From positions 1-60,628 of IMG/VR virus record IMGVR_UViG_3300010157_000068: 60,628 nucleotides of DNA; one strand, given 5' to 3'. The position numbers and the translations under genes are program-made. Source of the DNA: a virus. Lineage: Duplodnaviria > Caudoviricetes. Below, one piece after another: positions 7,089 through 46,262 of the stretch (position 1 is its first letter; each line of letters opens with the position of its first letter). The notes under the pieces are model-generated. The model did no database searches. It was not told the origin of the DNA and worked only from the letters and a program-made list of their open reading frames with translations.

Positions 7089-9312
7089 ATTATATTCTGT
7101 TGTAGAAAATTTTATACCTAATAACGTTCTCTCTATAAAGAATAGAAACAAGTCGTGGGAGTACGGATATGACGACAAGTACGACCTGGTTGTTATATCA
7201 AAGGATGGTACTATAGGTCAGGTGTATAATATAAACGGAATATACATAGCGTTACCTTCCGTCCCAAATATTGTGTATAAAAGGGACCAAAGGAAAGAGG
7301 AGCAGTACTGGGAGGCCTCAGATTACCCTAAAGAACTAGGAAATGTAAAGTCAATATTTCAGTGGCACACGATGTCAAAAGACTTCAAAGCTAAGTGGGT
7401 AGACTACATAGAGACAGAGTTTATAAAGAGAGACGAGGGGATGTTCTTTATGAATAATGGGTCGCCAACTTATATAACCGGAAGTCATTACATGTACCTT
7501 CAGTGGACAAAGATAGATGTCGGCCACCCTGACTTTAGAGAGGCGAACAGGATATTTTTCATTTACTGGGAGGCGTGCAAGGCAGATGACAGGTGCTTCG
7601 GAATGACGTATCTTAAGATCAGGCGTTCAGGTTTTTCATTCATGGCCTCATCGGAGTCTGTTAATGTAGCAACACTTGCAAAAAATGCACGCATTGGAAT
7701 ATGCTCTAAAAAAGGTGAGGACGCTAAGGCGATGTTTACCGACAAGGTGGTTCCTATATCTAGCAACTACCCATTCTTCTTCAAGCCGATCATGGACGGT
7801 ATGGATAAGCCTAAGACAGAGCTTGCGTACAGAGTGCCAGCGGCAAAGATCACCAAGAAGAACATGTACGAGAATGATGAGTCAAACCTTGAGGGTCTTG
7901 ACACATCTATTGACTGGAGTAATACATCTGATAACTCATACGATGGTGAGAAGCTAAGACTTCTTATAGAGGATGAGTCTGGAAAACTAGAGAAGCCGAA
8001 CAATATACTAAACGGATGGCGCGTAAGAAAGACGTGTCTAAGACTTGGTAGCAAAATCATAGGGAAGTGTATGATGGGGTCTACAGTTAACGCTCTAGAC
8101 AAAGGAGGTGCAAACTTTAAAAGCCTGTACGAAGACTCTAAGATATCTACAAGGAACGCTAACGGCCAGACAAAGACAGGACTGTACTCTTTATTTATAC
8201 CTATGGAGTGGAACTTTGAGGGCTACATTGACAGGTACGGGATGCCTGTGTTTAGAAAGCCAGAAGAACCAGTAGTTGGGGTAGATGGAAGGTTAATCAA
8301 GATAGGAGCTATTGACTTCTGGGAGAATGAGGTGGATTCTTTAAAGAGTGATCCTGATGCTCTTAATGAGTTTTACAGGCAGTTCCCAAGGACAGAAGGA
8401 CATGCATTTAGAGATGAGAGCAAGTCATCTATATACAATCTTACTAAGATATACCAGCAGATAGACTATAACGACTCACTTGTGAAGGATAGGGTTCTTA
8501 CAAGGGGATCATTTCACTGGAAGGATGGAAAGCAAGACACAATAGTCGTGTGGACTCCAGATAGTAGGGGTAGGTTCTTAGTGTCTTGGATACCTAACAA
8601 CTCTCTAATAAACAATGTAATAAACAGGGGCGGTATAAAATACCCTGGCAACGAGCATATTGGAGCTTTCGGTTGTGACCCGTATGATATATCAGGAACC
8701 GTTGGAGGGGGTGGGTCCAAGGGGGCTCTTCATGGACTAACTAAATTCAACATGGACGACGCTCCTAGTAATCAGTTCTTCCTTGAATACATAGCAAGGC
8801 CACAGACGGCCGAGATATTTTTTGAAGATGTGCTTATGGCGTGCGTGTTTTACGGAATGCCTGTACTTATAGAGAATAACAAGCAGAGGCTTCTTTATCA
8901 CTTTAAGAATAGGGGGTACAGAGGTTTTTCATTTAATAGACCGGATAAGCCTTCTCATAAGCTTTCTAAGACAGAAAAAGAGCTTGGAGGTATACCTAAC
9001 TCATCTGAAGACGTTAAGCACTCTCACGCGTCAGGAATAGAGTCTTATATAGAAAAGTATGTCGGTCTAGATACAGAAGGTACATACAGGGATCCTGATG
9101 AGATGGGATCCATGTATTTTACTAAGACATTAGAGGATTGGGCCAAGTTTGATATTAATGATAGAACAAAGCATGATGCCTCAATTAGTTCTGGACTAGC
9201 TATTATGGCTACTCAAAGGTACTCATTCTCGCCTGTTAAAAAAGATTCAAAAATAAGTATTAAATTTGCAAGATACAATAACAACGGAAGATACAGCGAA
9301 ATATTAAAATAA
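7027..9312 (+). CDS. terL: Terminase large subunit
   Basis: Walker A variant LKIRRSGFS, Walker B LLIEDESGK, and nuclease motifs GCDPYD, IENNK and HDASISSGLA. True start may be slightly downstream. Confidence 0.88.
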   Translation: MVSQNKKSLQSRDLQSEDQHKLYSVVENFIPNNVLSIKNRNKSWEYGYDDKYDLVVISKDGTIGQVYNINGIYIALPSVPNIVYKRDQRKEEQYWEASDYPKELGNVKSIFQWHTMSKDFKAKWVDYIETEFIKRDEGMFFMNNGSPTYITGSHYMYLQWTKIDVGHPDFREANRIFFIYWEACKADDRCFGMTYLKIRRSGFSFMASSESVNVATLAKNARIGICSKKGEDAKAMFTDKVVPISSNYPFFFKPIMDGMDKPKTELAYRVPAAKITKKNMYENDESNLEGLDTSIDWSNTSDNSYDGEKLRLLIEDESGKLEKPNNILNGWRVRKTCLRLGSKIIGKCMMGSTVNALDKGGANFKSLYEDSKISTRNANGQTKTGLYSLFIPMEWNFEGYIDRYGMPVFRKPEEPVVGVDGRLIKIGAIDFWENEVDSLKSDPDALNEFYRQFPRTEGHAFRDESKSSIYNLTKIYQQIDYNDSLVKDRVLTRGSFHWKDGKQDTIVVWTPDSRGRFLVSWIPNNSLINNVINRGGIKYPGNEHIGAFGCDPYDISGTVGGGGSKGALHGLTKFNMDDAPSNQFFLEYIARPQTAEIFFEDVLMACVFYGMPVLIENNKQRLLYHFKNRGYRGFSFNRPDKPSHKLSKTEKELGGIPNSSEDVKHSHASGIESYIEKYVGLDTEGTYRDPDEMGSMYFTKTLEDWAKFDINDRTKHDASISSGLAIMATQRYSFSPVKKDSKISIKFARYNNNGRYSEILK

Positions 9313-11748
9313 ATGAAGGATGTTACCGTCAATATAAACCCTGCAGGGTTCCCAAATCAATTTGCTTCAGATAAAGAGAAAGAATCTCTAGAGTATGGAC
9401 TACAGATCATGCAGGCCGTGCAGTATGAGTGGTTTCGAAAGGACAGCAACTCCTGTAAGTTTTATAATCAATGGGGTGACTTTCATAGACTTAGATTGTA
9501 TGCTAGAGGAGAGCAGTCGGTTGCAAAGTACAAGAATGAGTTATCAGTCGATGGAGACCTTTCTCATTTAAACTTGGACTGGACCCCAATTCCTATCATC
9601 CCAAAATTTGTGGATATAGTTGTTAATGGAATGGCTGATAGGTTATTTAAACCTAGGGCCTATGCTCAGGATGCAATATCTGCAGAGAGAAGGAGCAAGT
9701 ATCAGGACATGATAGAGACCGATATGGTGTCTAAAGATATCCTGTCTCAGGTGAAGGATAGTTTTGGAATAAACGCATTTGATACCGACCCAGAAAATCT
9801 ACCTCAGGATACCGAAGAGCTTAATTTGTTTATGCAAATAAACTATAAGCCGGCTATAGAAATTGCAGAGGAGACAGCAATAAATACGATACTAGAAGAA
9901 AACAGGTATGACGACATAAGAAGTAGAGTTGATTACGATATTACCGTTATTGGTAAGGGTATCGTTAAGCACCAGTTCTTACCAGGCAGCGGAGTACAAG
10001 TAGATTATGTAGACCCTGCAAATGTTGTTCATAGCTATACAGAAGACCCTCATTTTAGAGACTGTTTTTATTGGGGAGAAATTAAGACGGTTCCAATAAC
10101 GGAGCTTTTAAAGATAGATCCTACACTTACCAATGAGCAGTTAGAGGAAATATCTAAGTACAGTCAGTCATGGTACAATTACTATAACAACTCGCAATTT
10201 TATCAGAATAGTCTTTTCAACAAAGACTCTGCAACATTGTTGTATGTAAATTATAAGACAACTAAAAAATTTGTTTACAAGAAAAAAATACTTGACACCG
10301 GAGGTGTAAGGATTATACAAAAGGATGATACGTTCAATCCTCCTGCCGACATGATGGAGGAGGGAAGATTTGAAAAGGTGGAGAAGACTATTGATGTCTG
10401 GTACGATGGGATAATGGTTATGGGGACAAATATCGTCCTTAAGTGGGAGCTGTGCAAGAATATGGTGCGGCCTAAGTCTTCGTCTCAGTATGCAATTCCT
10501 AACTATGTAGCTGTTGCGCCTAGAATGTACAAGGGTAATATAGAGTCTCTTACTAGAAGGATGATTCCATTTGCTGATTTGATCCAGGTAACACATTTAA
10601 AGTTGCAGCAAGTATTGGCTAGAGTGGTTCCGGACGGTGTATTTATAGATGCCGACGGAATTAATGAAGTTGATCTTGGTACAGGGGCGGCTTATAACCC
10701 AGAGGACGCACTTAGATTATACTTCCAAACAGGTAGTGTGATCGGTAGAAGTTATACACAGGATGGAGAGTTTAATAATGCAAGGGTTCCTATACAAGAA
10801 TTAAACACGAATAGCGGTCAAGGAAAGATATCTGCCCTTATAGGCAGTTATAATCACTACCTAGGAATGATACGCGATGTCACAGGATTAAACGAGGCTA
10901 GAGACGGAAGTATGCCGGATCCAGAGTCTTTAGTAGGACTTCAAAAACTAGCGGCCGCAAATTCAAACACGGCTACAAGACACATACTAGAGGGCAGCCT
11001 TAGTATTACCAAATCATTATCCGAAGCCATATCTTACAGGGTGGCAGATATTCTTGAATATTCTGACTTCTCGGAGACGTTTGCCATGCAGATAGGCAAG
11101 TATAACGTTAGCCTTCTTGAAGAGATAAAGGATCTATACATTTATGATTTTGGAATATTTATAGATGTATCCCCTGACGAGGAAGAAAAGGCCAAGCTAG
11201 AGCAGAACATACAGGTCGCGTTAAGCAGAGATCAGATATCTCTTGAAGACGTGATAGACATCAGAGAGATAAATAATATAAAACTAGCTAATCAACTTTT
11301 AAAGCTTAAGAAACGCAAGAAAAAGGAAGAGGATCAGCAGAATGCTATGCAGACTCAACAGATGCAAGCTCAGCTTAATACTCAGTCTCAACAGATGGCG
11401 GCGCAGAGCGCTATGCAGCAGATACAGGCAGAGACTCAGTCAAAGATTCAAATTAAGCAGGCAGAGGTTGGTTACGAAATAGAAAAGATGAAGACCGAGG
11501 CTCAGCTTAAGGTAGAGCTTATGAATGTTGAGTATCAAATGAACATGCATTTAAAAGGTGTTGAGGCGCAGGCTATAACAACTAAAGATGAGCTTAAGGA
11601 GAAGGCTAAGGATAATAGGATTCTAAAGCAGGCAACTACGCAATCAAAACTTATAGAGCAGAGAAAAAATAACCTTCCTCCTGTAGATTTCGAGTCGAAT
11701 GAGGATTCGCTTGACGGCTTTGATATGTCAGAGTTTGAGCCAAAATAA
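9313..11748 (+). CDS. Portal protein
   Basis: 811 aa after TerL, PIPIIPKFVDIVV motif, long Q-rich C-terminal coiled coil typical of podovirus portals. Confidence 0.85.
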   Translation: MKDVTVNINPAGFPNQFASDKEKESLEYGLQIMQAVQYEWFRKDSNSCKFYNQWGDFHRLRLYARGEQSVAKYKNELSVDGDLSHLNLDWTPIPIIPKFVDIVVNGMADRLFKPRAYAQDAISAERRSKYQDMIETDMVSKDILSQVKDSFGINAFDTDPENLPQDTEELNLFMQINYKPAIEIAEETAINTILEENRYDDIRSRVDYDITVIGKGIVKHQFLPGSGVQVDYVDPANVVHSYTEDPHFRDCFYWGEIKTVPITELLKIDPTLTNEQLEEISKYSQSWYNYYNNSQFYQNSLFNKDSATLLYVNYKTTKKFVYKKKILDTGGVRIIQKDDTFNPPADMMEEGRFEKVEKTIDVWYDGIMVMGTNIVLKWELCKNMVRPKSSSQYAIPNYVAVAPRMYKGNIESLTRRMIPFADLIQVTHLKLQQVLARVVPDGVFIDADGINEVDLGTGAAYNPEDALRLYFQTGSVIGRSYTQDGEFNNARVPIQELNTNSGQGKISALIGSYNHYLGMIRDVTGLNEARDGSMPDPESLVGLQKLAAANSNTATRHILEGSLSITKSLSEAISYRVADILEYSDFSETFAMQIGKYNVSLLEEIKDLYIYDFGIFIDVSPDEEEKAKLEQNIQVALSRDQISLEDVIDIREINNIKLANQLLKLKKRKKKEEDQQNAMQTQQMQAQLNTQSQQMAAQSAMQQIQAETQSKIQIKQAEVGYEIEKMKTEAQLKVELMNVEYQMNMHLKGVEAQAITTKDELKEKAKDNRILKQATTQSKLIEQRKNNLPPVDFESNEDSLDGFDMSEFEPK

Positions 11749-11765
11749 TAAAAGAAAATATTTAC

Positions 11766-11773
11766 TAACTTTG
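11766..11773 (+). promoter_or_regulatory. -7 promoter element TAACTTTG
   Basis: TAnnTTTG in an intergenic gap, 14 nt before the ATG at 11787. Confidence 0.65.
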
Positions 11774-11786
11774 CAAAAATATAAAA

Positions 11787-12149
11787 ATGACACTAGAAGA
11801 TATAGCAGGTAGACTTGCTACGTTCCATGAGCAGATACATCAGATTCACTGGGAGACAAGGAGTTTTGCTGAGCACAAGGCTTTAGGAGAGTTCTATGAG
11901 TTTCTACAAGACTTTAAGGACGAGATAATTGAAAAGGTTATGGGGTACTCAGGAAAGAGGGTTAAAGGTTTTAGGGTTGATATTATAAAGCCAAACGAGA
12001 ATTCCGTAGATGTGGTTGACCAGGTACTTGTATTTGCTAGGGAGTTAGAAATGTTTGGAGACGCAAACATGTATCCTGACGTATGTAATATGGCTCAGTC
12101 GTTATCTGGAGAGACAGCAAAGGTTAAGTACCTTCTTACTTTATCGTAA
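11787..12149 (+). CDS. Dps/ferritin-like four-helix-bundle protein
   Basis: HQIHWET..FAEHKALGEFYE...DEIIE follows the Dps ferroxidase pattern. Confidence 0.75.
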   Translation: MTLEDIAGRLATFHEQIHQIHWETRSFAEHKALGEFYEFLQDFKDEIIEKVMGYSGKRVKGFRVDIIKPNENSVDVVDQVLVFARELEMFGDANMYPDVCNMAQSLSGETAKVKYLLTLS

Positions 12150-12174
12150 TTAAATAAATTTAAAATTAAATCAA

Positions 12175-13278
12175 ATGGGAGAATTTACAGTTAGGGACGT
12201 AGGTGCCGGAGAAGAAAGGTCTATACAAGAGATCGAACAGGAATTACTTGATAAGCACGAGGAGAAGTTTAATAATGACGGAGTTCAAGAAAAGGAATCG
12301 TTCACGGAACGTGAACAGGTAGAAGAGGTTGAACATAAGGATACTACTTTAGAATTAAAGGACGAAGACATACTGTCTTATATTAAGGGCAGGTATAATA
12401 AAGACATCAGCTCAGTTGATGAGTTGTTCAAAGAAAGAGATAGTAATGAGGAGCTTCCGTCGGATGTATCCGCATTCTTAAAATATAAAAAAGAAACAGG
12501 AAGAGGTATAGATGACTTTATTAGGTTAAATAAGGACTTCGAAAAACTTTCGCCTGAAAAACTTTTAGCAGAGTACTACTCAGCTACCGAGTCAGACTTG
12601 GATGACGAAGATATCAGTTACATGATAGAGGATAGGTTTAGTTACGACCCTGACTTTGATGATGAAAAGGATATTAAGAAGAAAGAAATTGCCAAGAAAA
12701 AAGAGCTTGCTAAAGCAAAGAAGTTTTTTGAAGATCAGAAAGAACAGTACAAGACACCGGCTGAGTCAAAAGGTGGATTAGTTAGTGATGATGAGAAGGA
12801 AGCTTATAATGCTTACAAGAAATACGTTCAAGACTCGAATAACATACAGCAGGAGGGCTTAAAAAAAGCTGAGTACTTCCAGAAAAAGACTGAAGAGATT
12901 TTTAACTCAGAATTCAAAGGTTTTGATTTCAACGTGGGTGAAAAAGACATCAAGTTTCTACCTGGAGACCCGGCAGATTTAAAAAAGTCTCAGTCTGATC
13001 TAACAAACTACATATCCAAGTATTTGGATAAGGATGGGTTGGTTTCAGATGCCGTAGGTTATCATAGGTCATTATCTGTCGCTATGAATCCTGAAAAGTT
13101 TGCCAAGTTTTTTTATGAACAAGGTAAGGCTGAGGCGCTATTAGATACCGCCAAACAAACAAAAAATATAGACATGGATATGAGGTCTTCTCAACAGTCT
13201 ATCAGCACTTCAGGCATAAAGGTTAAGAGTATGAGTACTGATTCGGGTAGTGGACTTAAATTTAAAAGTTTAAAGTAA
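12175..13278 (+). CDS. Capsid scaffolding protein
   Basis: Acidic helical protein directly before the major capsid gene. Confidence 0.65.
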   Translation: MGEFTVRDVGAGEERSIQEIEQELLDKHEEKFNNDGVQEKESFTEREQVEEVEHKDTTLELKDEDILSYIKGRYNKDISSVDELFKERDSNEELPSDVSAFLKYKKETGRGIDDFIRLNKDFEKLSPEKLLAEYYSATESDLDDEDISYMIEDRFSYDPDFDDEKDIKKKEIAKKKELAKAKKFFEDQKEQYKTPAESKGGLVSDDEKEAYNAYKKYVQDSNNIQQEGLKKAEYFQKKTEEIFNSEFKGFDFNVGEKDIKFLPGDPADLKKSQSDLTNYISKYLDKDGLVSDAVGYHRSLSVAMNPEKFAKFFYEQGKAEALLDTAKQTKNIDMDMRSSQQSISTSGIKVKSMSTDSGSGLKFKSLK

Positions 13279-13298
13279 CACTAAAAAATTAAAACAAA

Positions 13299-14720
13299 AT
13301 GGGAGTATTATCTACACCAGGCTATGATTTACAGCCGTCTGCTGAGAAGAAAACCTTAGCATCAAATTACATCACAAACTTCGACTTCTTGAATCAGTAC
13401 TTACCAGATACTTACGAGAAAGAGTTTGAAAGATACGGTAACCGATCGGTTGCATCGTTCTTAAGATCAGTAGGGGCTGAGATGCCTTCAACATCTGACC
13501 TTATCAAGTGGGCAGAACAAGGTCGTCTACACACTAAGTATGTTAACTGTGTTGCAACAGGCTATTCTGCCGGTGCTGATACGGCTACAATCATCGTTAA
13601 TGACGTATTAAATCCTGCCGTAACTACAGGAACTGGAATTGCATTTAGAAAGGGACAGACAGTATTTTTATCTGATAACAACGAAGCTTCTAAATCTAAC
13701 AAGGCAATTATCACTAACGTAAACTACTCTGCCAGCACATTTGATGTAGCTTACTATGAAGGTGGAGGCCAGACATTTGGAGCTACTGACGTGATCACAG
13801 CGTTTGTTTATGGTTCAGAGTTCAGAAAAGGTACAGAAGGAATGGTTGAGTCTTTAGAGGCTAACGACATATTCTTAGAGAACAGCCCGATCATCATCAA
13901 AGATAAGTACGCGGTATCTGGTTCAGATATGGCTCAAATCGGATGGGTTGAGGTTACTACTGAGAATGGGGCCACCGGATATTTATGGTACATTAAGTCA
14001 GAGCATGAGACTCGTCTACGTTTTGAGGACTACTTAGAATTAGCTATGATCGAAGCTGTACCTGCTGAGTCAGGATCTGGAGCTGCTGCCCAATCTACAT
14101 TTGGAAATAAGGGTTCTGAAGGTTTGTTCTACTCGGTTGCCGACAGAGGTAACATCTGGGGAGGCGGTAACCCAACCACATTGTCTGACTTTGATACTAT
14201 TATCCAACGTCTTGACAAACAAGGAGCTATTCAAGAGAACGTGTTGTTTGTTAACCGTCAGTTCTCTTTCGATATTGATGATATGTTGGCTGCTCAAAAC
14301 TCTTATGGTGCAGGTGGTACATCTTATGGTTTGTTTGATAACGATAAGGAAATGGCGTTGAACTTAGGTTTTACAGGATTCCGTAGAGGTTACGACTTCT
14401 ATAAAACTGACTGGAAGTACTTGAACGATGCTGCAACTCGTGGAGGTGTAGTTGGAGGCGCAGTTAACGGAGTTTTAGTCCCTGCTGGATCTACTACAGT
14501 TTACGATCAGGTGTTAGGTAAAAACGCTAAGCGTCCTTTCTTACACGTAAGATACCGGGCCTCTGAGACAGAAGACAGACGCTACAAGACTTGGATTACA
14601 GGTTCTGCTGGAGGAGCTACAAACTCTTCTTTAGATGCAATGGAGGTTCATTTCTTGTCTGAAAGAGCTTTATGTACTCTAGGAGCTAACAACTTCTTCT
14701 TATTCGAAGCTAATAGCTAG
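13299..14720 (+). CDS. Major capsid protein
   Basis: 473 aa, position after the scaffold, strongly biased codon usage, followed by a terminator. Confidence 0.82.
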   Translation: MGVLSTPGYDLQPSAEKKTLASNYITNFDFLNQYLPDTYEKEFERYGNRSVASFLRSVGAEMPSTSDLIKWAEQGRLHTKYVNCVATGYSAGADTATIIVNDVLNPAVTTGTGIAFRKGQTVFLSDNNEASKSNKAIITNVNYSASTFDVAYYEGGGQTFGATDVITAFVYGSEFRKGTEGMVESLEANDIFLENSPIIIKDKYAVSGSDMAQIGWVEVTTENGATGYLWYIKSEHETRLRFEDYLELAMIEAVPAESGSGAAAQSTFGNKGSEGLFYSVADRGNIWGGGNPTTLSDFDTIIQRLDKQGAIQENVLFVNRQFSFDIDDMLAAQNSYGAGGTSYGLFDNDKEMALNLGFTGFRRGYDFYKTDWKYLNDAATRGGVVGGAVNGVLVPAGSTTVYDQVLGKNAKRPFLHVRYRASETEDRRYKTWITGSAGGATNSSLDAMEVHFLSERALCTLGANNFFLFEANS

Positions 14721-14733
14721 AAATAAATTACCC

Positions 14734-14767
14734 AACAGAGGGGCATTAGTGTCCCTCTGTTATTTTT
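14734..14767 (+). terminator. Rho-independent terminator after the capsid gene
   Basis: AACAGAGGGGCA-TTAG-TGTCCCTCTGTT hairpin followed by a T-rich tract. Confidence 0.8.
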
Positions 14768-14787
14768 AACAATTTAAATTATATCAA

Positions 14788-15528
14788 ATGGAAAAGAATA
14801 TTGCATTAGTAGATAGAATCTACGTATTAAAAAAAAGAAATACTCCGTTGTCATATATGCTGACATCGAAGAACACTTCAAGAAGTCCCTTATACTACTT
14901 TGACGGAACAACAAATAGAGCGCTTCGGTACGCTAGGAATCAAAAATCACCTTTCGAGGATGAGCAAGATGGTTCAGCAATACTAGAACCTATCGTCTTC
15001 GTAGATGGTTCATTAACAGTATTTAAAACAAACCCGGTGCTTCAAAAGTTCTTAGATTATCACCCTGGTAATGGGACCATATTTGAAGAGGTAAATACAG
15101 AAAAAGATGCCTCAGAGCAGGTAGAAAAGATCGATATGGAGCTTGATGCTCAGTTAGCAGCCAGAGACCTTTCTGTAGACATGCTTGAGGCTGTAGCCAG
15201 AGTTGTACTAGGTGTTAAGATAGACAAGATGTCTACGTCTGAATTAAAAAGAGATGTTAGAGTTTATGCTAAGGGCAACCCACAAAAGTTTATGGAGATA
15301 CTAAATGATCCTATGCTTAACCTTCAAAATACATGTGCTAAGTTCTTTGATCATGACCTTTTAAAATTAAAAAATAGAGGAAGAGATATCTATTTCAACT
15401 TAGAAACAAATAAGAAAAAAGTGCTTACGGTGCCTTATGGTGAGAATCATTTATTTACACTGGCCTCTCACCTGAGATCTGACGATGGAATTGAAACTTT
15501 AAGACTTTTAGAGAGTCACTTAGGGTAG
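14788..15528 (+). CDS. Hypothetical protein in the head module
   Basis: 246-aa ORF. Confidence 0.7.
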   Translation: MEKNIALVDRIYVLKKRNTPLSYMLTSKNTSRSPLYYFDGTTNRALRYARNQKSPFEDEQDGSAILEPIVFVDGSLTVFKTNPVLQKFLDYHPGNGTIFEEVNTEKDASEQVEKIDMELDAQLAARDLSVDMLEAVARVVLGVKIDKMSTSELKRDVRVYAKGNPQKFMEILNDPMLNLQNTCAKFFDHDLLKLKNRGRDIYFNLETNKKKVLTVPYGENHLFTLASHLRSDDGIETLRLLESHLG

Positions 15529-31500: not shown

Positions 31501-34395
31501 AAATCAAATAAATCTAACGAAGAGAATGTAAAAAAAGTATGGGAAAGATATAAGAATGGAGAGATAAGTATTGATAAGGCTCATTCAGATATTAGTGATT
31601 TAGCTGGAGGTATTAGTAAGCCAATATGGTATGAGTATGTTGCTGATGATAATGTTAAATCATTAGATGAAAATTCAGCAGCAATGGATCAGGCTAATGA
31701 AGACTCAATAGGAAAATTCCAAGACTCTCAAGGGTATTCTGATATGAAAGATATCGTTAAGGATATGATTGACGAGGGCAAATCAATTGACGAAATAAAA
31801 AAGATCATTAATGACGAGTTAGGATCAGATCAAGTATCCTTGGCTGAAAGAGCTCATAAAGAATTAACTGCAGAACCTAAAAAAGAAAACATAGCAAAAA
31901 AAACAGTCAAATCATTCTTTGATAATGACATAGCGCCTATGTTCAAGAGTAAGGCAGAGGCCTTGGTAGAGACTGCTAAAGCAGTCGTAAATACGTTAAG
32001 TCCAAAAACTGGTGTTGATAAAGGCGTTGTGAATAAGTTCTACGAGATGGTTGGAGATAGAAACAAGTCTGCAACCTTAATAGATAAGCAGATAGGAGAG
32101 TACAAAAAGACATTTGATAAAATGTCTGACACAGACAGAATAAGTTTTGTAGACAGAATGAAGAATGGAGAGACTCAACCTACTCCAGAATTAGATGCCA
32201 TAGCTAAAACTATTTCCAAGTTAGATTCAGATATGTATGACGAGATAACAAAATACAATCCTAACCTAGCATGGAAAGAAAACCACTTTAGAGTACTATG
32301 GAAAAAGGTCCCTGGATCTGAAAAAGAAAAGTACTGGTCATTCCTATCTAAAAGACCAGTAAGAGGTAGTAGAGGATTCTTCAAGCAGTCAACACTTAGA
32401 AGTATGTCTGAAGGTATAGAGAAGGGAGGGGTTCCGTACAGCACAAACCCTGTAGAGATGTTTGAAATGTCATACAATGACGGTATGAAGTATATTACCG
32501 CGCAAAGAATTATAGAGTCGTTTAAGAAGGACAATATAATAAAGTTTGTAAAGAGTGGGCAAGACGTGCCTGATGGTTATACTAAGATAAACGATAGCTT
32601 GGCTAATGTTTACTTCAAGGGAGACCAGGGCATGGTAAAAACTGGTGAGTATTATATACAAGAAGCACCTGGAAGAATGCTTAATAACATGCTTAGCAGG
32701 GACTATATAAGAGACACAAAGTTGGGATCGTCACTTATGGGAATCAAGAACTTTTATACCGGAATAGAGCTAGGCATAAGTCCATTCCACGCAGTAGCAA
32801 TATCTTTAGAACAGATTGCTTCTGGTGCTGGAATAGGCGTTAGAAAGATAGTTAATTTAGGAGATGTAAAGGGAGGTATAAAAGATATTGTAACGGCTCC
32901 GTTCTCTCCTAAAACAACATTCTCTTTAGGACGAGACTTCTTTAAATTTTCTACGGTAAAGGATTTTGAAAATAGCGATGGAGGAAAAAAATTCTTAGAG
33001 AAGAACCCTAATGCTAAGCAATATGTTGATGATTTCTTCAAAGGAGGAGGTCTTATGAAGCAGCATGAAGAATTAAAATCAAACACATACAAAGCGCTTA
33101 AAGAAAACCTAGGGAAGGACAACTATATAGGAGCTACTATGAGAGCGCTTCCAGCTCTTAACGAGGGAGTTATGAGTCCATTATTTAATGTTTACATTCC
33201 TTCGCTAAAGGTTGGCTTGTTTATGAAAGAGTTTCCGCTTGTATTGGCCGAGAACAAAGCAGCGTTAGAGAGTGGTAAGGTGACCAGAGAAGAACTTTCT
33301 AGAAAGGTAGTTGATGGAATTGACAATAGGCTTGGAGAGATGAATTTCGATAACCTATACTGGAACAGAACATTCAAGACCGCTAGTCAGTTCATGCTAA
33401 GATCTGTTACCTGGAAGTTGGGTAATATTAGACAAATGGGTGGAGCTGCTCCTGAGCAGGCAATAGAGTTTGTTAATGCAATAAAGGAAGGAAGAAGACC
33501 GAACTTATCTCCTAAGATGGCATGGCTGCTAGGCCTTTCATTAATACAGGTTGTTTTAGCAAGTGTTATACAGCATGCGTCACTTAAAAAGGATGATGAG
33601 GATAAGGACCTAAAAGACTTTAAAGACATTGTAGCTCCTAGGATAAATAGCGATGATAATAAGGAACGTGTAGTAATACCAACCTACTACAAGGATTTAC
33701 TTCATTTTTGGCATGCTCCAGGAGAGTATGTATCTTCGGGTATATCCGGCCCATTAGGTAAAATGATGGATGTATATAATAACAAAGACTTTTACAATTA
33801 TGAGATACGAGATGAAAATGATCCGGCCACTAAACAGTTAATAGATGCTGGAAAATACGTAATGCCAAAACCATTCTCCGTTACATCATTTCAAAAAATG
33901 AAAGAAAAGGGAGAACCAGTAAGTAAACAAGCTCTTAGTTTTATGGGGTTCAACAAGGCGCCAGGATATTTAGAACACAGCGATCTTGAGTCTGAGATAC
34001 TTGATCTTTACAGAATAAGAAATACAAGCGTAAAACCTTTAAAAATGAAAGAGGCCAATGATAAGAAGAAGGAGATACGAGACATGTACAAGAAGGATGT
34101 AAAGAAGGCTCAAGTAATGGCAGATGAGGCTGTTAAAAGCGGATTATTAAGACCTACACAAATAACTAGGTTGTTTCATGATGTAGCTAAAAATCAAGAC
34201 GCCATGGTTTATTTCTTTAACAGGCTTCCAGAGACTGACAAGGAATACTTGGAAAGCAAAATGACTGATGAAGAGAAGGCTAAATTTAACGTTAAGAAAA
34301 AGTTAACTGAACAAGAAATGAAAGCCAAGTATGGAGAGGAGACGTACAAAAAAATAATGATGGCTAGACAAAAATTAAAAAAGGGAGCTAATTAG
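25567..34395 (+). CDS. Giant (2942 aa) polyvalent-type internal virion protein
   Basis: ART-like YHVSH..D.IDP, zincin HEVFH...EE, HhH-glycosylase-like WYD...TIDTH...QSITW and a helical C-terminus. Confidence 0.75.
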   Translation: MPDNKFIPPSDAVEVKKNSKFVPPSDAVEVKKKESSEPTGQKKPLESATKAVAQSASSDTEPPTRAQVSVSLGGPTKLFEKQPDQHPESVMYGDGIKQPELLVPSKPIDLKQKKYYRVVADERRDVKNTISALESRNRELGRSEENLQNEGTYQYLKNKEEQLDAEFKPAEMAVKEIQKHSGVWTRPIESLVSSATEGKYSLVNTETINLNKDVEDKLIDTFDNAPEEMKQKWYKGQLPLDQKEHIINVAKTDVLNESYKGLKNDVSDFVKNIKDNPNISTQDKLIVKEKLKAKSDAFNAQVAMDFSDNLLKNNFKATEENKNLDEAIAKKYKGFLPDTLDFVSRLGEGIINTGGKALTGIGTMALLGAERFNQITGASNADDYTPIEATLDLINDTTNYNWLPSSKTKEGNILDDKGNLNLSYKSITRTLADTLPFTMQIMNDVKKGRIEGSPQSMISQLINPKNSKEFADKIKVVETAYKVTIGDNYREAKGMGMDDSKAFTYANIMSLAEGVSENIMPDFKYFDSVAGSTIKDVFKGNLKSAATKQAVKNVTKEFFKDIASEIGEEEFSLAVEDGLKYSLLLNHPNSEFFNIKRQKELIASTAIMSGATGLRYAPEKIKQNRTDIYREVYNNIGDLQDSFNSEINSPLNDDKTKESLKVAYNFASDISNAIAKSPENVTADQIDLLVQKDKLEGKKKAMDPAFHPDINKEIADIDAKIREMSNIPAEVAAPAVSEVTAIQQEITPTPMLTEEDKSAVKSGQKVSDVLNRPAVLESFGGSKLDSPVEGDVYQEGHRVIFEDKNKKTYDLGNIDEISDSTVEDLGLKPQEQLMSVKPVEIKVESNEDLDSKKSDIERRRNDELAVLNARIKAAEKEGRIPVDENGNGIRGKEEIQKINAKYDAELEALKSKKTPKGISPETSSNVANMTQDANGNYVFYHVSHNTLDTIDPSKHGTNPAGVTSSTEKAAISRVGGVSMYYPAENATEHMVKGNMHMVKVPEAEVYDFNSDPLNLIEEARKRFEEEHPNLPFTPNDQFAQVTKIANEKGYKMVVGEWNGGTRAQTTEAMNPIDVKEMSGDTIVKPFQEQLTSNKDKGYKSVIPEAKEARLKAVYDEIHNERNKQNKYDSLYHLAASDLSKMPQEEITKMIEESDLSQETKDKYAEALKYEPEQRRSEAPKEPESVEHNGIKYTKNENGNWVNEKTGNEVKGIGDKGKELVKTLDGLVEPKYERTDNVKIEGAPEGNYVNIGMNIGTTDEVMSEQEIESMLPEDVDVVEKDVKEVKSVLDGKENVEKTMSLRLSRPLTDTEMKKLLKDTKQKAIPQMVEGEGAMHGTKEWGDFNPEYFHMPDGKLLSEKLAKPAEVKESTKSKLEAFKQKHINKPVFDKEKLKSQVENAKKSIAKILPNVKIVVHDNPDSFILETGKNASGFYETETGTIHINASRANARTVAHEVFHAVLFEKLKTESSVRDLTKKMVSAISRTLDSNPELKKQLDDFISDYDSNVHNEEKMSELFGHLVDGYEGFDATAKSLVKKFIDRIATMFGLKPFTEGDVVDMLKTIAGKVSTGEEIVSKDVKIIKPAKIDIKGNLEKPSIKSKDNLESKKYQLTEDTKSEVKKGSIVSTRTPDIEGVHKTNNNIVDLKSLEKDDALVIKIAKELSSYGLSKIEEVNNINDARNLIQDFKNSVKDNLRFLHDSFGKEVRDVAKLWYDGANKISNEIADKYNYSTDQVAGVMAVLSPQMDWFRNLSLGKRVIDIYKNQQDTLFDSKMRSWIENSTSGTGKNKKELFPNSKEIIKRVDGKKLSELDIKDKAIFIRSYDEVYNSKNYENISPNGEVNGLVRNSNGSPGACGWGAFSTIEKSISILEDGSIENISKNLGNMHKVRNFFNNISDPSDPNAVTIDTHAVAAGLMLPLSGSSKEVLYNFGGASSKSTGSKGSYPVYADAYRELAKELGILPRELQSITWEAVRGLFKADFKSNKSNEENVKKVWERYKNGEISIDKAHSDISDLAGGISKPIWYEYVADDNVKSLDENSAAMDQANEDSIGKFQDSQGYSDMKDIVKDMIDEGKSIDEIKKIINDELGSDQVSLAERAHKELTAEPKKENIAKKTVKSFFDNDIAPMFKSKAEALVETAKAVVNTLSPKTGVDKGVVNKFYEMVGDRNKSATLIDKQIGEYKKTFDKMSDTDRISFVDRMKNGETQPTPELDAIAKTISKLDSDMYDEITKYNPNLAWKENHFRVLWKKVPGSEKEKYWSFLSKRPVRGSRGFFKQSTLRSMSEGIEKGGVPYSTNPVEMFEMSYNDGMKYITAQRIIESFKKDNIIKFVKSGQDVPDGYTKINDSLANVYFKGDQGMVKTGEYYIQEAPGRMLNNMLSRDYIRDTKLGSSLMGIKNFYTGIELGISPFHAVAISLEQIASGAGIGVRKIVNLGDVKGGIKDIVTAPFSPKTTFSLGRDFFKFSTVKDFENSDGGKKFLEKNPNAKQYVDDFFKGGGLMKQHEELKSNTYKALKENLGKDNYIGATMRALPALNEGVMSPLFNVYIPSLKVGLFMKEFPLVLAENKAALESGKVTREELSRKVVDGIDNRLGEMNFDNLYWNRTFKTASQFMLRSVTWKLGNIRQMGGAAPEQAIEFVNAIKEGRRPNLSPKMAWLLGLSLIQVVLASVIQHASLKKDDEDKDLKDFKDIVAPRINSDDNKERVVIPTYYKDLLHFWHAPGEYVSSGISGPLGKMMDVYNNKDFYNYEIRDENDPATKQLIDAGKYVMPKPFSVTSFQKMKEKGEPVSKQALSFMGFNKAPGYLEHSDLESEILDLYRIRNTSVKPLKMKEANDKKKEIRDMYKKDVKKAQVMADEAVKSGLLRPTQITRLFHDVAKNQDAMVYFFNRLPETDKEYLESKMTDEEKAKFNVKKKLTEQEMKAKYGEETYKKIMMARQKLKKGAN

Positions 34396-34402
34396 CTCCC
34401 TT
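34381..34402. terminator. Bidirectional terminator between the two convergent arms
   Basis: Perfect palindrome AAGGGAGCTAATTAGCTCCCTT. Confidence 0.75.
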
Positions 34403-37396: not shown

Positions 37397-37610
37397 AAAC
37401 TTTAATAAAATTATTGTCCTTGTCGTAGATTTTTATTAGATTAAATTTTCTGTCTATGTGCTCTAAGATGTTATCAAGGCTTACAGAGTTAAATATAGCT
37501 CCGAAGTTATTAATGTCTATGCTATCGTTAGTGTTCTGCCTATAGTAATCATAGAACCAATTAAGATTATACTTGCCTGTGTTTCTCATCTGAATGTATT
37601 TAACCTTCAT
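37362..37610 (-). CDS. Hypothetical protein
   Basis: Coupled overlaps on both sides. AT-rich. Confidence 0.6.
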   Translation of the reverse strand: MKVKYIQMRNTGKYNLNWFYDYYRQNTNDSIDINNFGAIFNSVSLDNILEHIDRKFNLIKIYDKDNNFIKVYEGTAYTSQKD

Positions 37611-38830
37611 AAGTAGTCTCTTTTAAAATGGTTAGTAGTGTATGATTTTTTGTTTAGTACTGACTTATAGATCTTTTCCTCTATGCCGCCTTCCGAGAAG
37701 ATCCAGTATACCTTATTGAACTTCCTATCGATAGTCGTCATTCGATCACGAGCCTGCCAGTAACTAGTTGCCGAGAAGTCTATGTTATAAAATACTAGGT
37801 ACTCAGCGTTTCTTAGAGATATCCCTTCGCGGCCAGAGACAATCTGAAGAGCTATGCTTTTATCTGTACTATTAAACTCCTCTAGGCTAGTTGTTAGCTT
37901 GTCGCCAAAGATAGTCTTTAGCGCGTTAAATTCCTCAACAAATTTGTAGAATATTCCTATTTTCATATTCTCGAATCGAGAAAATATGAACTCAGCCTTG
38001 CTGTAGTCGATCACCATAGAGTCTCCACTCTCGAACTTGATGGTACCGGAGTACATCTGGTGAAGCTTCTGCTGCAGCTTGACTGAAGTATCAGCTAGTA
38101 TAACCTGGCTTGAACCCTCTATCACTAGGTCCTTCATAAGCCGGTTACACATCTCGTAAGTGGAGTCCTTCATTCTTACCTTAAGCACCTCCTCCTCAAT
38201 CACAGACTCAAATCCGGCCTGCTCCTGCGTGTATGTTAATATGTAGGGAGAGATCACACTCATAATCTTGCCTATGTCCGCATCACTGTAGTCATTCACC
38301 TTGGCATAACCTAGGTGCTTAACCTTTATATTGACGTAGTTAGCCGCCCACTTGTAGAAGTTAACCTCCTTGAACGGAGAGAACAGGCTGCACCAGAACT
38401 GATGGTACACCTGAGAGTATGACTCCGGGCTTGGGGTACCTGACAGGAAGATGGCCGGAAGGTGTCCGAACATCTTCTTGTAGGTCTTTGCTCCTAGACT
38501 AGGCTTAGGGAATGACCCAAACCGGTGGTGCTCGTCATGAATAACTAGGTCAAACTTGCCGTCGATCTTATGCATGGACTCGTCATTATATACGAACAAC
38601 TCGAAGTGCTTGTCGTACTCGAAGTTAATGTAGTCAGACTCGATAGAAGATATTGCCTTCTTCTTTGTCAAGAATAAGACTCTTTTAGCTCCAAAAAGTA
38701 CAGCCGTCTCTAGAGATACACTTGTTTTTCCTAAACGTACTTCTAAAGCATAGTAAACTACTCCTTTTAATTTAAGTATATTTACTCCTTTATTAGCTAT
38801 ATTTACTTGGTAATCCCTAAGTTTATACAT
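37607..38830 (-). CDS. SNF2-like SF2 helicase
   Basis: LRDYQ, RLGKT, DEHH, LSGTP, GREGISL and QARDR motifs. Confidence 0.88.
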   Translation of the reverse strand: MYKLRDYQVNIANKGVNILKLKGVVYYALEVRLGKTSVSLETAVLFGAKRVLFLTKKKAISSIESDYINFEYDKHFELFVYNDESMHKIDGKFDLVIHDEHHRFGSFPKPSLGAKTYKKMFGHLPAIFLSGTPSPESYSQVYHQFWCSLFSPFKEVNFYKWAANYVNIKVKHLGYAKVNDYSDADIGKIMSVISPYILTYTQEQAGFESVIEEEVLKVRMKDSTYEMCNRLMKDLVIEGSSQVILADTSVKLQQKLHQMYSGTIKFESGDSMVIDYSKAEFIFSRFENMKIGIFYKFVEEFNALKTIFGDKLTTSLEEFNSTDKSIALQIVSGREGISLRNAEYLVFYNIDFSATSYWQARDRMTTIDRKFNKVYWIFSEGGIEEKIYKSVLNKKSYTTNHFKRDYL

Positions 38831-39356
38831 AATACTTATTATTTAACACGTTTAAAATACAGCGTCTTCCTACATTGTATTTCAACATAAAATTTTTTAC
38901 ATTACCATCAGATTTAATCACGTCTTTAGAGTTTCCTTTTACGCAATTTTTTCTAATATCGAGAATAGCTTCTTCAGATAATTTTCTATTTGAATTTATT
39001 TTTTTTAACACATCGTACGAGTGTCTTTCATTTTCTGAATGAGTACACCATTCTAAATTATGAATATTGTTATTACTTCCATTTCCGTCTATGTGATTTA
39101 CACAAGGTTTGTTTTTTGGATTAGGAATAAAATATAAGGCTACCAATCTATGCACTTGATATCTTTTTTGAATGTTGTTTTGACTAAAAGTAACTCTTTT
39201 GTATTTATTTTTAACCGTTTCTTGTGTTAATAATTTTTCTTTATAATTTGTAATTACTCCATTAGAATAAATTATTTTACATTTTTTTCTCCTAACATTT
39301 CCGTAACTAGAAATTTCATAATTAGTAAAATAAGCAATTGTTTTCCAAATTTCCAT
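38823..39356 (-). CDS. NUMOD4-HNH homing endonuclease
   Basis: EIWK.I...YEISSYGNVR, VHRLVA..FIPNP, VNHIDGN..NN...NLEWCT..EN. Confidence 0.92.
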   Translation of the reverse strand: MEIWKTIAYFTNYEISSYGNVRRKKCKIIYSNGVITNYKEKLLTQETVKNKYKRVTFSQNNIQKRYQVHRLVALYFIPNPKNKPCVNHIDGNGSNNNIHNLEWCTHSENERHSYDVLKKINSNRKLSEEAILDIRKNCVKGNSKDVIKSDGNVKNFMLKYNVGRRCILNVLNNKYYV

Positions 39357-39360
39357 AAAT

Positions 39361-39442
39361 AAAAAACCACCAAATCAAAAGGTCGCCGTCTTTATCATTG
39401 GTGGAATTTGTATAAATCTTTAATTGTAGCGGCGACTCTACA
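39361..39442 (-). ncRNA. Candidate two-hairpin kissing-loop leader RNA
   Basis: Loops GUCGCCG and CGGCGAC are exactly complementary. The second hairpin is followed by U6. Confidence 0.65.
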
Positions 39443-39446
39443 GGTG

Positions 39447-39454
39447 CAAAGATA
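39447..39454 (-). promoter_or_regulatory. -7 promoter element TATCTTTG for the HNH gene
   Basis: CAAAGATA on the + strand, directly upstream of the leader. Confidence 0.7.
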
Positions 39455-39583
39455 GTAAAAATATTATAAATCTTTTAGGTTAATTCGTTTATTTAGCTCC
39501 TTTTTTAATTAGGTAGTACCATAACCAGATTGCTTTAGACCTAAGAATCTCATAAAATGCCCATAACAGAATGTATTTCATAT

Positions 39584-40793
39584 CTATAGGTTTAAGTTAC
39601 TTCTGTTCTGGTGAACTTCCTTCTCCATCTGTTCGTAAAATATAGTCACCTTACGTGTCTCGCACCCCATTTTGTGTATTCCACCTGCTTGATTACAGTG
39701 GGTGCACTTATCTGTAATGATCTTGTATCCAGTGTCAATGCGCTTGAAGTCCTTGACCAAATAATCTTTGAATCCAAAACTATCTAGCGGCATACCTCTA
39801 GAAATATAGGGGCCGCCTGACGGATCCACCATCTCGATCTCATTAGTCAGTGAGTCAATCATCCTGACGTACTTATCGTATATGTGTTTATGAGTCTCAT
39901 CATCATATTCGTGTACAGCTTTTTTAAACTGTTGAAGTGTCATCAAAGACTGAACGTGTTCGTTATCTTTTAGGTAAGTTTCGTATGCTCTAGTGTAATC
40001 ATTAGGTATTCCAAACCTGCAATATTTAAAATCACCCTCCCAAAGTACGTCGTGGTTTTCATCTCTTGTAAATGTGTACTCGTCACCGTACCTATTTTTA
40101 TAAATGTTTTTCATAGTTTTAATTTTACAAATTCTTTTAATGATTTTTCGCTTATATAAAATGCAATTACATCTCCGTTAAATTCTCTTGAATAACCAAA
40201 CATTTTACACACATCGTCATAACTCAAGCAAGGCTTATTGTATAGTATAAACTCCTCGGCCTCTTCTTCGGTTTTAAAGTTTCTTAAACTGTCCTGTAAA
40301 ATTGGAAGACATCCTTTATTATGTACCTGATATACCTTCCATGGGTCAAATGACTGATACTTGTCTTTAAAAACTACATAGTGTTTGTCAGTTACTTTTT
40401 TCCAATATTCAGGGTGCGACACATAAAAACCTATCCCCTTCCATTCGTTAGTTTTGTTTTCTGAAGAATGTACAGTACCTAGCTCAGGCGAGCCAGGATA
40501 CTCTTTAATTAATTTATATTTCATATCCTCTCTCTTTTAGTTACTACCTCGTATATTATTTCTCTGTTAATTAACTTCAGCAAGATAAGTAATTTTTCTG
40601 CTGTAGAATAGTCTAGATATACTAATTTTTCATTTTCTGTGGTAACTGCTAATCCATTACCGTCGTCTGTTATTCTTAACGCTAACTCTCCAGAACTCAG
40701 CCATTCAATATTATCTGAATAATACAACTCGTGGTGGTTGTCATCTAATTTGTAATCGTACTCGTGCTTGTTATCTACTAGTATCTGTTCCAT
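39584..40793 (-). CDS. Three hypothetical proteins (39584-40114, 40111-40524, 40521-40793)
   Basis: ATGA-overlapped ORFs. Confidence 0.65.
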
Positions 40794-40796
40794 ATT

Positions 40797-41675
40797 TTAA
40801 ATATTTAATTCTAATTCAGTTTGACTTCTTGGTATTAAATCATTTATTCCACACATACCATTACATTCAAATAAAGGCTCTACCTTTCTAGGTGGCATGT
40901 CGTCTATACTCTTGTTGTTCGGATACGCAGGGTGTTTCTTAAGGAACACTAGGTGAGACTTAGGATCTGTTTTCTTTTTCTGCTCTGCCTCGTTAGACTG
41001 ATCCTTAAGCATGGTTACCGGCTCTCCTTTTAACTCTGTAAGTTCGTGCTCTAGGTCTGCCATCACATCAAACTTATCCGGAAAGTCTCTCTTCATCTTC
41101 TGCCAGTAACCTATACCTCCCTGAACGCAGCCAGTGGAGAAGCAGTTGTTATTTTGAAAACCTAACCTGTACATCTCAGGCACCTGTATGCCGGCGTCTT
41201 CCGTAATCCTTATACAGTCCTGCTTGTTATATCCTAGCATAAGCAGTGGGTATATTGCCTTGGTCCTCTTACCATGATTTAGAGTCATTGATAATGCCCT
41301 GTTAAACTCCTTCTTATCAAACTCAAATCCGAATACCTGATGCTTAAAGTCGTTAGTCTTCTCCCACTTCTCGCGAACAACCCTCTTAAGATTCGTAGAA
41401 CATATGGCGCCATTAGCTGTATTTAAGGACTTGTGCTTCCTCCACACATCAAATATGTTTCCGTACTTTTCTCCTATCCCAGTAATAACTTCTATATCTA
41501 GTCCGTACCATTTCTCGCAGTCAGTCTTAAATCTATACGTATCCGGATGCTCGTTCTGTGTATCAATCATTATAACCCTGCAATTCTCTAGTCCGTAAGT
41601 ATCTATAGCTATCTTACAAGCTACAGCAGAGGTTACCCCCCCCGACCACCACGCTATTATTTTATTATTTTCCAT
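40797..41675 (-). CDS. PAPS-reductase-family (PP-loop) protein with Cys clusters
   Basis: WWSGGVTSAV loop, ICSTNLKR, YRLGFQNNNC...GCVQGG and a terminal ECNGMC. Confidence 0.8.
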   Translation of the reverse strand: MENNKIIAWWSGGVTSAVACKIAIDTYGLENCRVIMIDTQNEHPDTYRFKTDCEKWYGLDIEVITGIGEKYGNIFDVWRKHKSLNTANGAICSTNLKRVVREKWEKTNDFKHQVFGFEFDKKEFNRALSMTLNHGKRTKAIYPLLMLGYNKQDCIRITEDAGIQVPEMYRLGFQNNNCFSTGCVQGGIGYWQKMKRDFPDKFDVMADLEHELTELKGEPVTMLKDQSNEAEQKKKTDPKSHLVFLKKHPAYPNNKSIDDMPPRKVEPLFECNGMCGINDLIPRSQTELELNI

Positions 41676-45986: not shown

Positions 45987-46050
45987 AATAAAATAATTTA
46001 ATGTTTCGCTTACTCTATTACACAGTTTTCAGCTACCCTGTTTATTTTAA

Positions 46051-46262
46051 AAACCAAACACATCCACCAAGATTGGAATAAATTTATTGACTTTGGTGAA
46101 CTTATCTGTTTACTCCTAATCCTCAATATTTTTACCATACTCAACAAAAATAACACTTCTTGGGAGTGTTTACAATACGCTAAAATAGTCCTTGATACTT
46201 GGTCTACCCTTTAGCTTCGAGCATCCTATATTGTATTCGTTGTCTTTCTATGTGTTTGGTTT
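46051..46262. ncRNA. Candidate 212-nt structured RNA or miniature element
   Basis: 13-bp perfect terminal inverted repeat AAACCAAACACAT/ATGTGTTTGGTTT enclosing at least three nested hairpins. No long ORF. Confidence 0.55.

Follow-up and report, generated by a model that had tools for sequence, protein, structure and literature searches.

The leader at 39454-39361 and its surroundings

The window, by which we mean the whole stretch of viral DNA analysed, is an entire assembly of 60,628 bp on a single contig. On its minus strand, a 177-aa ORF at 38823..39356 with NUMOD4 and HNH_3 Pfam domains encodes a homing endonuclease, and the stop codon of this ORF overlaps the ATG of an SF2 helicase ORF at 37607..38830 (ATGTATAA, 38823-38830). 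A search for the promoter box TAnnTTTG found no intergenic copy between position 39454 and the helicase gene. Because the two genes overlap at stop and start and no intergenic TAnnTTTG box intervenes, the structured leader in front of the endonuclease gene heads a nuclease-helicase operon. The overlap itself suggests, from its sequence, that translation of an essential-looking helicase may be coupled to that of a selfish gene.

The leader occupies positions 39454 to 39361 of the minus strand. It begins with the -7 promoter box TATCTTTG (39447..39454), which matches the Flavobacterium sigma-A -7 box, placed at -12 to -5 in the sections of PMC6847099 and PMC9723704 that describe it; the promoter assigned by the first-pass annotation is thus supported. 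A box at -12 to -5 would put +1 on the first base of hairpin 1, so that the transcript is predicted to start at 39442. Sequence and RNAfold place hairpin 1 at 39425..39442, with a 5-bp stem UGUAG/CUACA and an 8-nt loop AGUCGCCG (in DNA letters, TGTAG at 39442-39438, AGTCGCCG at 39437-39430 and CTACA at 39429-39425). It is followed by an A/U-rich linker of 20 nt (39405..39424) ending in a near-invariant AAAUU, which faces the U-run in the RNAfold structure like the A-tract of a terminator. Hairpin 2 (39367..39404), identified by sequence, RNAfold and covariation, consists of a 7-bp lower stem CCACCAA/UUGGUGG (39404-39398 with 39373-39367), an internal loop UGAU/UGAU (39394-39397 and 39374-39377), a 4-bp inner stem AAAG/CUUU and an 8-nt loop ACGGCGAC at 39389-39382. 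Directly after this stem comes a terminator-like U6 run (39361..39366), then AUUU and the ATG at 39356, which leaves 10 nt between stem and start codon. Every element that the first-pass annotation had listed (box, both hairpins, spacer, U6 and ATG) is present on the minus strand at these positions.

The two loops are complementary to each other. The word GUCGCCG (39430..39436) lies flush with the 3' side of loop 1 and the word CGGCGAC (39382..39388) flush with the 3' side of loop 2, and as DNA, GTCGCCG (39436-39430) and CGGCGAC (39388-39382) are exact reverse complements, as had been claimed for a 7-bp pairing between the loops. In both 8-nt loops one 5' residue is left unpaired; a word flush with the 3' side of its loop and one free 5' residue is the canonical geometry of a kissing complex. 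The best RNAfold structure of the leader contains exactly both hairpins, at -17.2 kcal/mol.

Taken alone, the evidence within the window for a kissing fold is weak. The folding z-score of the leader is -1.88 (8 of 200 shuffles fold equally well), and the window contains 3 copies of the 7-mer GTCGCCG, with 1.22 expected; 12 of 100 shuffles also reach 3. A simple terminator scan with a loop rule of 3-8 nt did not flag hairpin 2, whose stem encloses 24 nt. Among the 28 TAnnTTTG-to-ATG leaders in the window, loop-loop complementarity reaches 7 only here and is at most 3 in the other 27. It is the comparison with homologues that makes the kissing fold more than chance.

Other features of the window lie apart from the leader. 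About 108 nt (39483-39590) separate it from the stop codon of the upstream ORF, and the syntenic relative L013/L300 has nothing that corresponds to this segment. The gene block also includes an upstream 292-aa ORF at 40797-41675 (minus strand); it has a PAPS-reductase-type domain, and its product is possibly a DNA-modification enzyme. At 46050-46152 (minus strand), a small hairpin, a long hairpin with UUUUU and a 96-aa ORF (MAKLIALSIDV...) come after another intergenic TAnnTTTG box, TATTTTTG; this leader is promoter-proximal and terminator-like, with no loop-loop complementarity. A perfect 9-bp palindromic hairpin, AAGGGAGCT-AATT-AGCTCCCTT, lies at 34381-34402; only on the minus strand is its stem followed by a T-run (TTTTAATTTT), the plus-strand tail (AAGTTTATCT) being weak. 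It is likely a terminator where plus- and minus-strand gene blocks converge, and possibly acts in both directions.

Homologous leaders and the loop-loop pairing

A BLAST search against phage records found copies of the leader that are 89% identical in 34 records from Baltic Flavobacterium phages, including vB_FspS hattifnatt, mumin and snork, and in each of them the leader stands directly before an annotated endonuclease; these relatives are Flavobacterium siphoviruses. The first pairwise alignment already contained a compensatory change, from GUCGCCG/CGGCGAC to GUCGUCG/CGACGAC. Further members were collected with pattern searches that placed no constraint on the two loops, on hairpin 1 or on the inner stem. 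They did fix the lower stem of hairpin 2, whose constancy is therefore in part a product of the search. In viral contigs the patterns matched 18 loci, of which 16 were true; L010 and L011, chance matches within a coding region, were dropped. In metagenome contigs 11 of 57 loci were judged true by eye, and none of the 11 loci in genome contigs was a true homologue. The 14-mer ATACAAATTCCACC and the sequence TGAYTTGGTGGTTTTT gave mostly chance matches in viral contigs and were useful only at L044, L141, L144, L147 and L201. One selection step kept loci with GTCG[CT][CA]G upstream, which restricts loop 1 and leaves loop 2 free. A covariance model built from 20 unique leaders, with no pseudoknot, recovered 24 distinct leaders. 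A minimum-free-energy leader scan missed many known members through alternative folds, and its histogram is not a census.

All 24 leaders have a linker of 19-21 nt, a U-run of 5-7 T and a distance of 9-12 nt from stem to ATG. In a search whose pattern required no T-run, all 16 true matches still carried one. The TAnnTTTG box lies at a fixed distance in 23 of the 24 leaders, the exception being L297 from a marine contig, and the internal loop is TGAT/TGAT in 18.

In the alignment of the 24 leaders, 98.0% of 549 cells are paired and 13 of 23 pairs change on both sides (a 20-sequence MAFFT alignment served as an earlier version of this test). Partners slid out of register are paired in 27-57%, and none of 500 column shuffles reaches the observed covariation values; since many of the 24 sequences are close relatives, this shuffle control is not a probability and the counts overstate the number of independent events. 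In hairpin 1 all five stem pairs covary, with the outermost pair unpaired in 8 of 24 leaders, and in hairpin 2 three of four inner-stem pairs and three of seven lower-stem pairs covary. The kissing helix is paired in all 168 of its cells, and two of its seven pairs covary: pair 17-64 is UA in 16 leaders, CG in 7 and UG in 1, and pair 18-63 is CG in 18, AU in 5 and UA in 1. Eight loop combinations occur among the 24 leaders, and all are complementary. The 24 leaders contain 6 G-U cells and no A-C cell, which indicates an RNA read from the sense strand of the gene and not a DNA repeat.

More divergent leaders were recovered as weak matches of the covariance model, which held no kissing information. 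These have different stems and wholly different codes of 7-9 nt, and they are located before nuclease homologues and other genes. The code is GTAGGAC/GTCCTAC in L314 and L315, TCGGGCAGG/CCTGCCCGA in L009, GTTGCAG/CTGCAAC in L018, and ACTGCAACA/TGTTGCAGT in L012 and L017, which have no clear hairpin-1 stem; L316 provides two variants with an extra hairpin in the linker. As far as sequence comparison goes, the appearance of new complementary codes in weak matches of such a model is the strongest independent evidence for the kiss. A search for homologues with compensatory loop changes had been suggested as the check on the pairing, and complementarity is indeed kept, both by compensatory changes and by wholly new codes. 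Judged by this pattern of sequence change, the loop-loop pairing is a real RNA structure.

The kink-like reading of the internal loop is not supported. In a kink-turn, a bulge of 3 nt lies between a canonical stem and tandem sheared G-A pairs. The UGAU/UGAU loop, which had been called kink-like, is a 4x4 loop, symmetric and lacking such a bulge, and we dropped both that description and the assignment to the kink-turns. Divergent members do without the loop: the corresponding position is ATTA/TTTT in L314 and fully paired in L316. A nested alternative fold that uses the same 7 bp is nearly isoenergetic (-16.4 versus -17.3 kcal/mol). We also considered an extended nested 'anti-terminator' helix and rejected it, because the hairpin 1 stem covaries independently, with no matching changes in the CUUU region, so that only the 7-bp core is supported. 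An ANTAR-type target with two hexaloops was rejected as well, the loops here being 8 nt long and paired with each other.

Downstream genes, mobility and leaders of replication operons

The ORFs behind the leaders were typed by N-terminal motif in all 24 cases and by Pfam in a subset only. Five are GIY-YIG ORFs, and Pfam adds NUMOD3 in the four of these to which it was applied. Fifteen of the 24 are of NUMOD4 type by motif, and two contig-truncated ones (L250 and L258) look alike by eye. All nine Pfam-checked NUMOD4-type ORFs have HNH_3 and seven also have NUMOD4; the nine are those of the window, L001, L009, L013, L014, L147 and L278, together with L295 and L201, which were counted through a leader and ORF N-terminus identical to those of L001 and L009, respectively. 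The HNH_3 ORFs of L009 and L201 also give a sub-threshold AP2 match, and for the ORF of L297 a sub-threshold AP2 match is all that was found. In L279 (318-416, minus strand) an intact leader, with one G-to-A change in the internal loop, precedes an ORF of only 13 codons, which, from its sequence, looks like a decayed nuclease whose leader has been retained.

Presence and absence of the leader and of the nuclease go together. In hattifnatt, a block of about 625 bp (AT-rich lead-in, promoter, leader and nuclease) lies between gp040 and a gene for an SSB-like protein. In filifjonk (L328, 789-800) the counterparts of these two genes are 10 nt apart, and leader and nuclease are both absent. Thus, the joint presence and absence of the two assigns the leader to a mobile block. 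A ParB-like gene occupies the site of the hattifnatt block in lillamy (L329, 792-1652) and in morran. The alleles at these sites diverge strongly at the 5' end of the downstream SSB-like gene.

The combination of leader and ORF is less constant. Between the window and its syntenic relative L013/L300 the flanking genes are 77-83% identical; with L013, the leader, at 87% identity, is conserved more closely than the flanking helicase, at 78%, and the nucleases share only 40% amino-acid identity. Conversely, the nucleases of L314-L316 are 69-72% identical to that of the window, yet they stand behind different leader variants. On these sequence comparisons, leader and ORF form a mosaic and not a single unit. 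The idea that the leader travels with its nuclease therefore holds in part: it is found with two nuclease superfamilies and is present or absent jointly with the nuclease, and the pairing of particular leaders with particular ORFs is mosaic.

The same architecture also occurs before replication operons. In a generic scan, a module had to combine a promoter and a T-run with two hairpins whose loops match over 7 or more complementary bases, 3 or more of these being G/C. A first version was far too permissive (632 and 2034 modules), before the word with at least 3 G/C and the TAnnTTTG box were required. The final scan gave 55 modules, counting duplicates, in the 0.6 Mb of related loci and 11 modules in 4.4 Mb of unrelated viral loci, at least 4 of which are true members. 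A module at 26214 (minus strand) of the window lies inside a coding sequence and has an A/T-rich word, and was treated as chance. The hattifnatt genome (L327) has three kissing leaders, located before the helicase gp034 (9365-9440; code GCTTCGAC/GTCGAAGC), the nuclease gp041 and the gp044-primase operon (14341-14487; code GTGAGACG/CGTCTCAC). Further kissing leaders precede SF2 helicases in L003, L018 and L141. In four non-nuclease leaders (those of the hattifnatt helicase and primase, L018 and L003) the inner stem of hairpin 2 is again short, and the internal loop, GGA/AAA, consists of purines only. Some non-nuclease leaders have a linker of 11-15 nt beside a hairpin 2 equivalent to 20 bp. The ATG of non-nuclease leaders follows 16-60 nt after the stem.

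The first-pass annotation had assigned to the leader the task of limiting a toxic nuclease. Since the leader heads a nuclease-helicase operon, this cannot be its whole function; the assignment was too narrow, as helicase and primase operons share the architecture and a helicase gene lies behind the nuclease here. We tentatively consider, as a conjecture that we think rather unlikely, that Flavobacteriia phages possess a genome-wide set of coded kissing-loop terminators, each early or replication operon and each homing-endonuclease cassette having a private code of 7-10 nt, with the scaffold being read and the whole set switched together in the course of infection. If this is true, the codes would sit on a common scaffold of 5' hairpin, tether, purine-rich internal loop and terminator, and what is read would be the scaffold and not the code, either through tether mechanics or by a structure-specific factor that acts as Rop does on the kissing complexes of ColE1. 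Homing endonucleases would then carry their own copy and plug into the phage circuit wherever they land.

Proposed mechanism, alternatives and significance

We regard a cis-regulatory role of the leader as likely from its sequence, and most likely the leader doses expression of the genes behind it. More specifically, with confidence that is about evenly poised, we view it as a cis-encoded structured 5' RNA within a mobile homing-endonuclease cassette that works as a kiss-locked attenuator. The layout agrees with the attenuator or translational damper proposed in the first-pass annotation: as in an intrinsic terminator, the G+C-rich stem CCACC/GGUGG lies directly before U6 in the window, and a GC-rich stem, a U-run of five to seven and a nearby ATG recur among the leaders, from which such a function may be deduced. 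From these features and from the folding energies we infer where the transcript starts, that it terminates at the U-run, in which direction the kiss acts and how translation is affected. Hairpin 1 has -3.0 kcal/mol, the apical hairpin of hairpin 2 alone +0.6 kcal/mol, the lower stem alone -7.7 kcal/mol, the full hairpin 2 -11.3 kcal/mol and the kiss duplex -8.5 to -12.0 kcal/mol.

In the proposed mechanism, the host sigma-A promoter would start the transcript at the foot of hairpin 1, and about 45 nt later the polymerase would meet the terminator-type hairpin with its U6, the ATG following 10 nt past the stem. The apical part of hairpin 2 would be too weak alone, and the 7-bp G+C-rich kiss with loop 1 would lock it. 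The kiss-locked terminator stem would then close quickly, and most polymerases would stop at the U-run and release an RNA of about 80 nt. In read-through RNA, hairpin 2 would lie within the ribosome landing zone and would also lower initiation. This is plausible because initiation in Flavobacterium, which makes no use of Shine-Dalgarno sequences, is tuned by structure between -20 and +20 according to the relevant part of PMC6847099. The outcome would be a fixed low dose of the nuclease and of the helicase operon behind it. The helicase here and the SSB-like gene in hattifnatt both lie behind the terminator and count against a tight one; accordingly, termination cannot be very tight.

The main rival gives the kiss the opposite sign. 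The kiss would hinder the terminator, so that read-through is the default or occurs whenever the kiss is stable, and termination would be confined to cases in which the kiss is lost, as might happen through temperature or Mg2+ or by the action of a helicase or a structure-specific protein. We consider this unlikely, even though a known RNA is laid out alike. The guanidine-IV element (mepA motif), as portrayed in the portion of PMC11611296 that deals with its architecture, has a promoter-proximal 5' hairpin, a linker and a hairpin extending into a poly-U terminator, and its loops kiss; the kiss is induced by the ligand and hinders completion of the terminator stem, as the linker becomes too short, which makes the element an ON switch. 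The genes behind such leaders, the helicase and primase operons of hattifnatt and the helicase here, look essential, as would suit read-through, and the pairing of 11-15-nt linkers with long hairpins in some leaders points the same way. In such short-linker non-nuclease leaders the kiss and the full stem may be mutually exclusive, and the sign of the kiss effect may therefore differ between leader types. For the leaders before nucleases, however, a rough length estimate suggests that a 19-21-nt linker can span a stack of about 27 bp, so that kiss and full stem would coexist. Moreover, if a kiss of 7-10 Watson-Crick pairs were always on, the conserved stem and U-run would be pointless, and the loops vary freely and offer no conserved ligand pocket.

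The leader is thus like guanidine-IV in architecture and fails membership in that family. Guanidine-IV controls the guanidine exporter mepA, whereas the leaders here precede HNH and GIY-YIG nucleases, helicases and replication genes, and a ligand-induced kiss is replaced by 7-10 Watson-Crick pairs with freely varying letters. An Rfam scan of 38800-40000 found no family on the leader strand at E<=10 (4227 families, among which the mepA model was not confirmed), a further point against the reading with the opposite sign, and a scan of hattifnatt 9000-15000, which contains its three leaders, found nothing relevant at E<=1.

A purely post-transcriptional role is quite unlikely in our view. Here hairpin 2, 10 nt before the AUG, would limit ribosome loading, the U-run would be incidental, and the 5'-terminal hairpin and the compact kissed fold would protect the mRNA from 5'-end-dependent decay. 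The constant stem-to-ATG distance in all 24 leaders is consistent with such a role, as are the predicted start at the foot of hairpin 1 and the sensitivity of Flavobacterium initiation to structure noted above. There is also a precedent in the T-even phages, where, in the account given in part of PMC2988022, 5' hairpins and terminators keep homing endonuclease expression low or late (hairpins of I-TevI/II/III, segB and Aeh1 mobE that block translation; 5' terminators of T4 mobE and segF). But pairing does not reach the start codon or the 9-12 nt in front of it, the non-nuclease leaders place the ATG 16-60 nt after the stem, and the U-run is kept in every member, even where it was not searched for.

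The T-even structures also differ from the leader in kind. In that same account they are single hairpins that sequester the Shine-Dalgarno site, or terminators inside the coding region, and no kiss is mentioned; the leader is paired only from about -11 upward, its start codon lies outside the stem, and its host phylum does not use Shine-Dalgarno sequences, so that sequestration of the ribosome site as in T-even phages does not apply. The T-even hairpins are described there as bypassed by an internal late promoter, whereas the sole TAnnTTTG box that our search detected at this leader lies upstream of both hairpins.

We hold it very unlikely that the main product is a trans-acting RNA of about 80 nt formed by termination, or that the DNA cassette serves as a homology patch for gene swapping in the manner of PeSLs. 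A promoter and a terminator within 80 nt do have the layout of a small-RNA gene, and the window and L013 have, at the same site, similar leaders before nucleases of only 40% identity. PeSLs, in the description taken from PMC4122927, are short conserved promoter and stem-loop cassettes with conserved terminator/promoter motifs at points where unrelated genes are exchanged, and the window and L013 on one side and L314-L316 as the converse case fit such an exchange point. The fixed 9-12 nt to the ATG argues for a leader instead, complementary loops on one molecule would satisfy each other, and DNA homology alone leaves both the compensatory changes and the occurrence of G-U with no A-C unexplained. 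We liken the two by description only: the PeSLs of that description are terminator/promoter composites of T4-like myoviruses with a role in DNA recombination, for which it gives no kissing fold or RNA covariation, whereas the leaders here are found in Flavobacterium siphoviruses.

Finally, the complementarity could be an inverted repeat that arose by chance, or an operator at the DNA level, and involve no RNA structure. The weak window statistics (z-score -1.88; 7-mer 3 versus 1.22 expected) would agree with this, but it is extremely improbable in view of the eight complementary loop combinations, at least four unrelated codes in divergent leaders, the 6:0 count of G-U to A-C and the excess of promoter-plus-kiss modules in related over unrelated viral loci.

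Coded kissing is known to set termination or translation in ColE1 RNA I/RNA II with Rop, in countertranscript attenuation of the pT181 type and in the c4 RNA of P1/P7, and in those antisense systems specificity shifts through matched changes on both partners. There, however, pairing joins two different molecules, be they separate RNAs or a processed RNA and the target it acts on, whereas both loops of the kiss-locked attenuator proposed here lie on one leader of about 80 nt. A full-text literature search found no description of the leader, and the main text of the FspS phage paper (supplements not covered) does not contain the words 'endonuclease', 'terminator', 'promoter' or 'hairpin'. This probable control element is thus uncatalogued.

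Taken together, these leaders would form a new and widespread family of structured phage leader RNAs in which the evidence for a long intramolecular kissing helix is unusually clean. They would show selfish nuclease cassettes that bring their own promoter and dosing device, a device shared with the replication operons of the phage. The leader would be a simple model in which to study how an intrinsic terminator is tuned by a tertiary contact, and setting it beside guanidine-IV turns the sign of that effect into a sharp question. Because the kiss is freely re-codable, the leaders would also supply the phylum Bacteroidota, for which few tools of this sort exist, with natural orthogonal parts for gene control.
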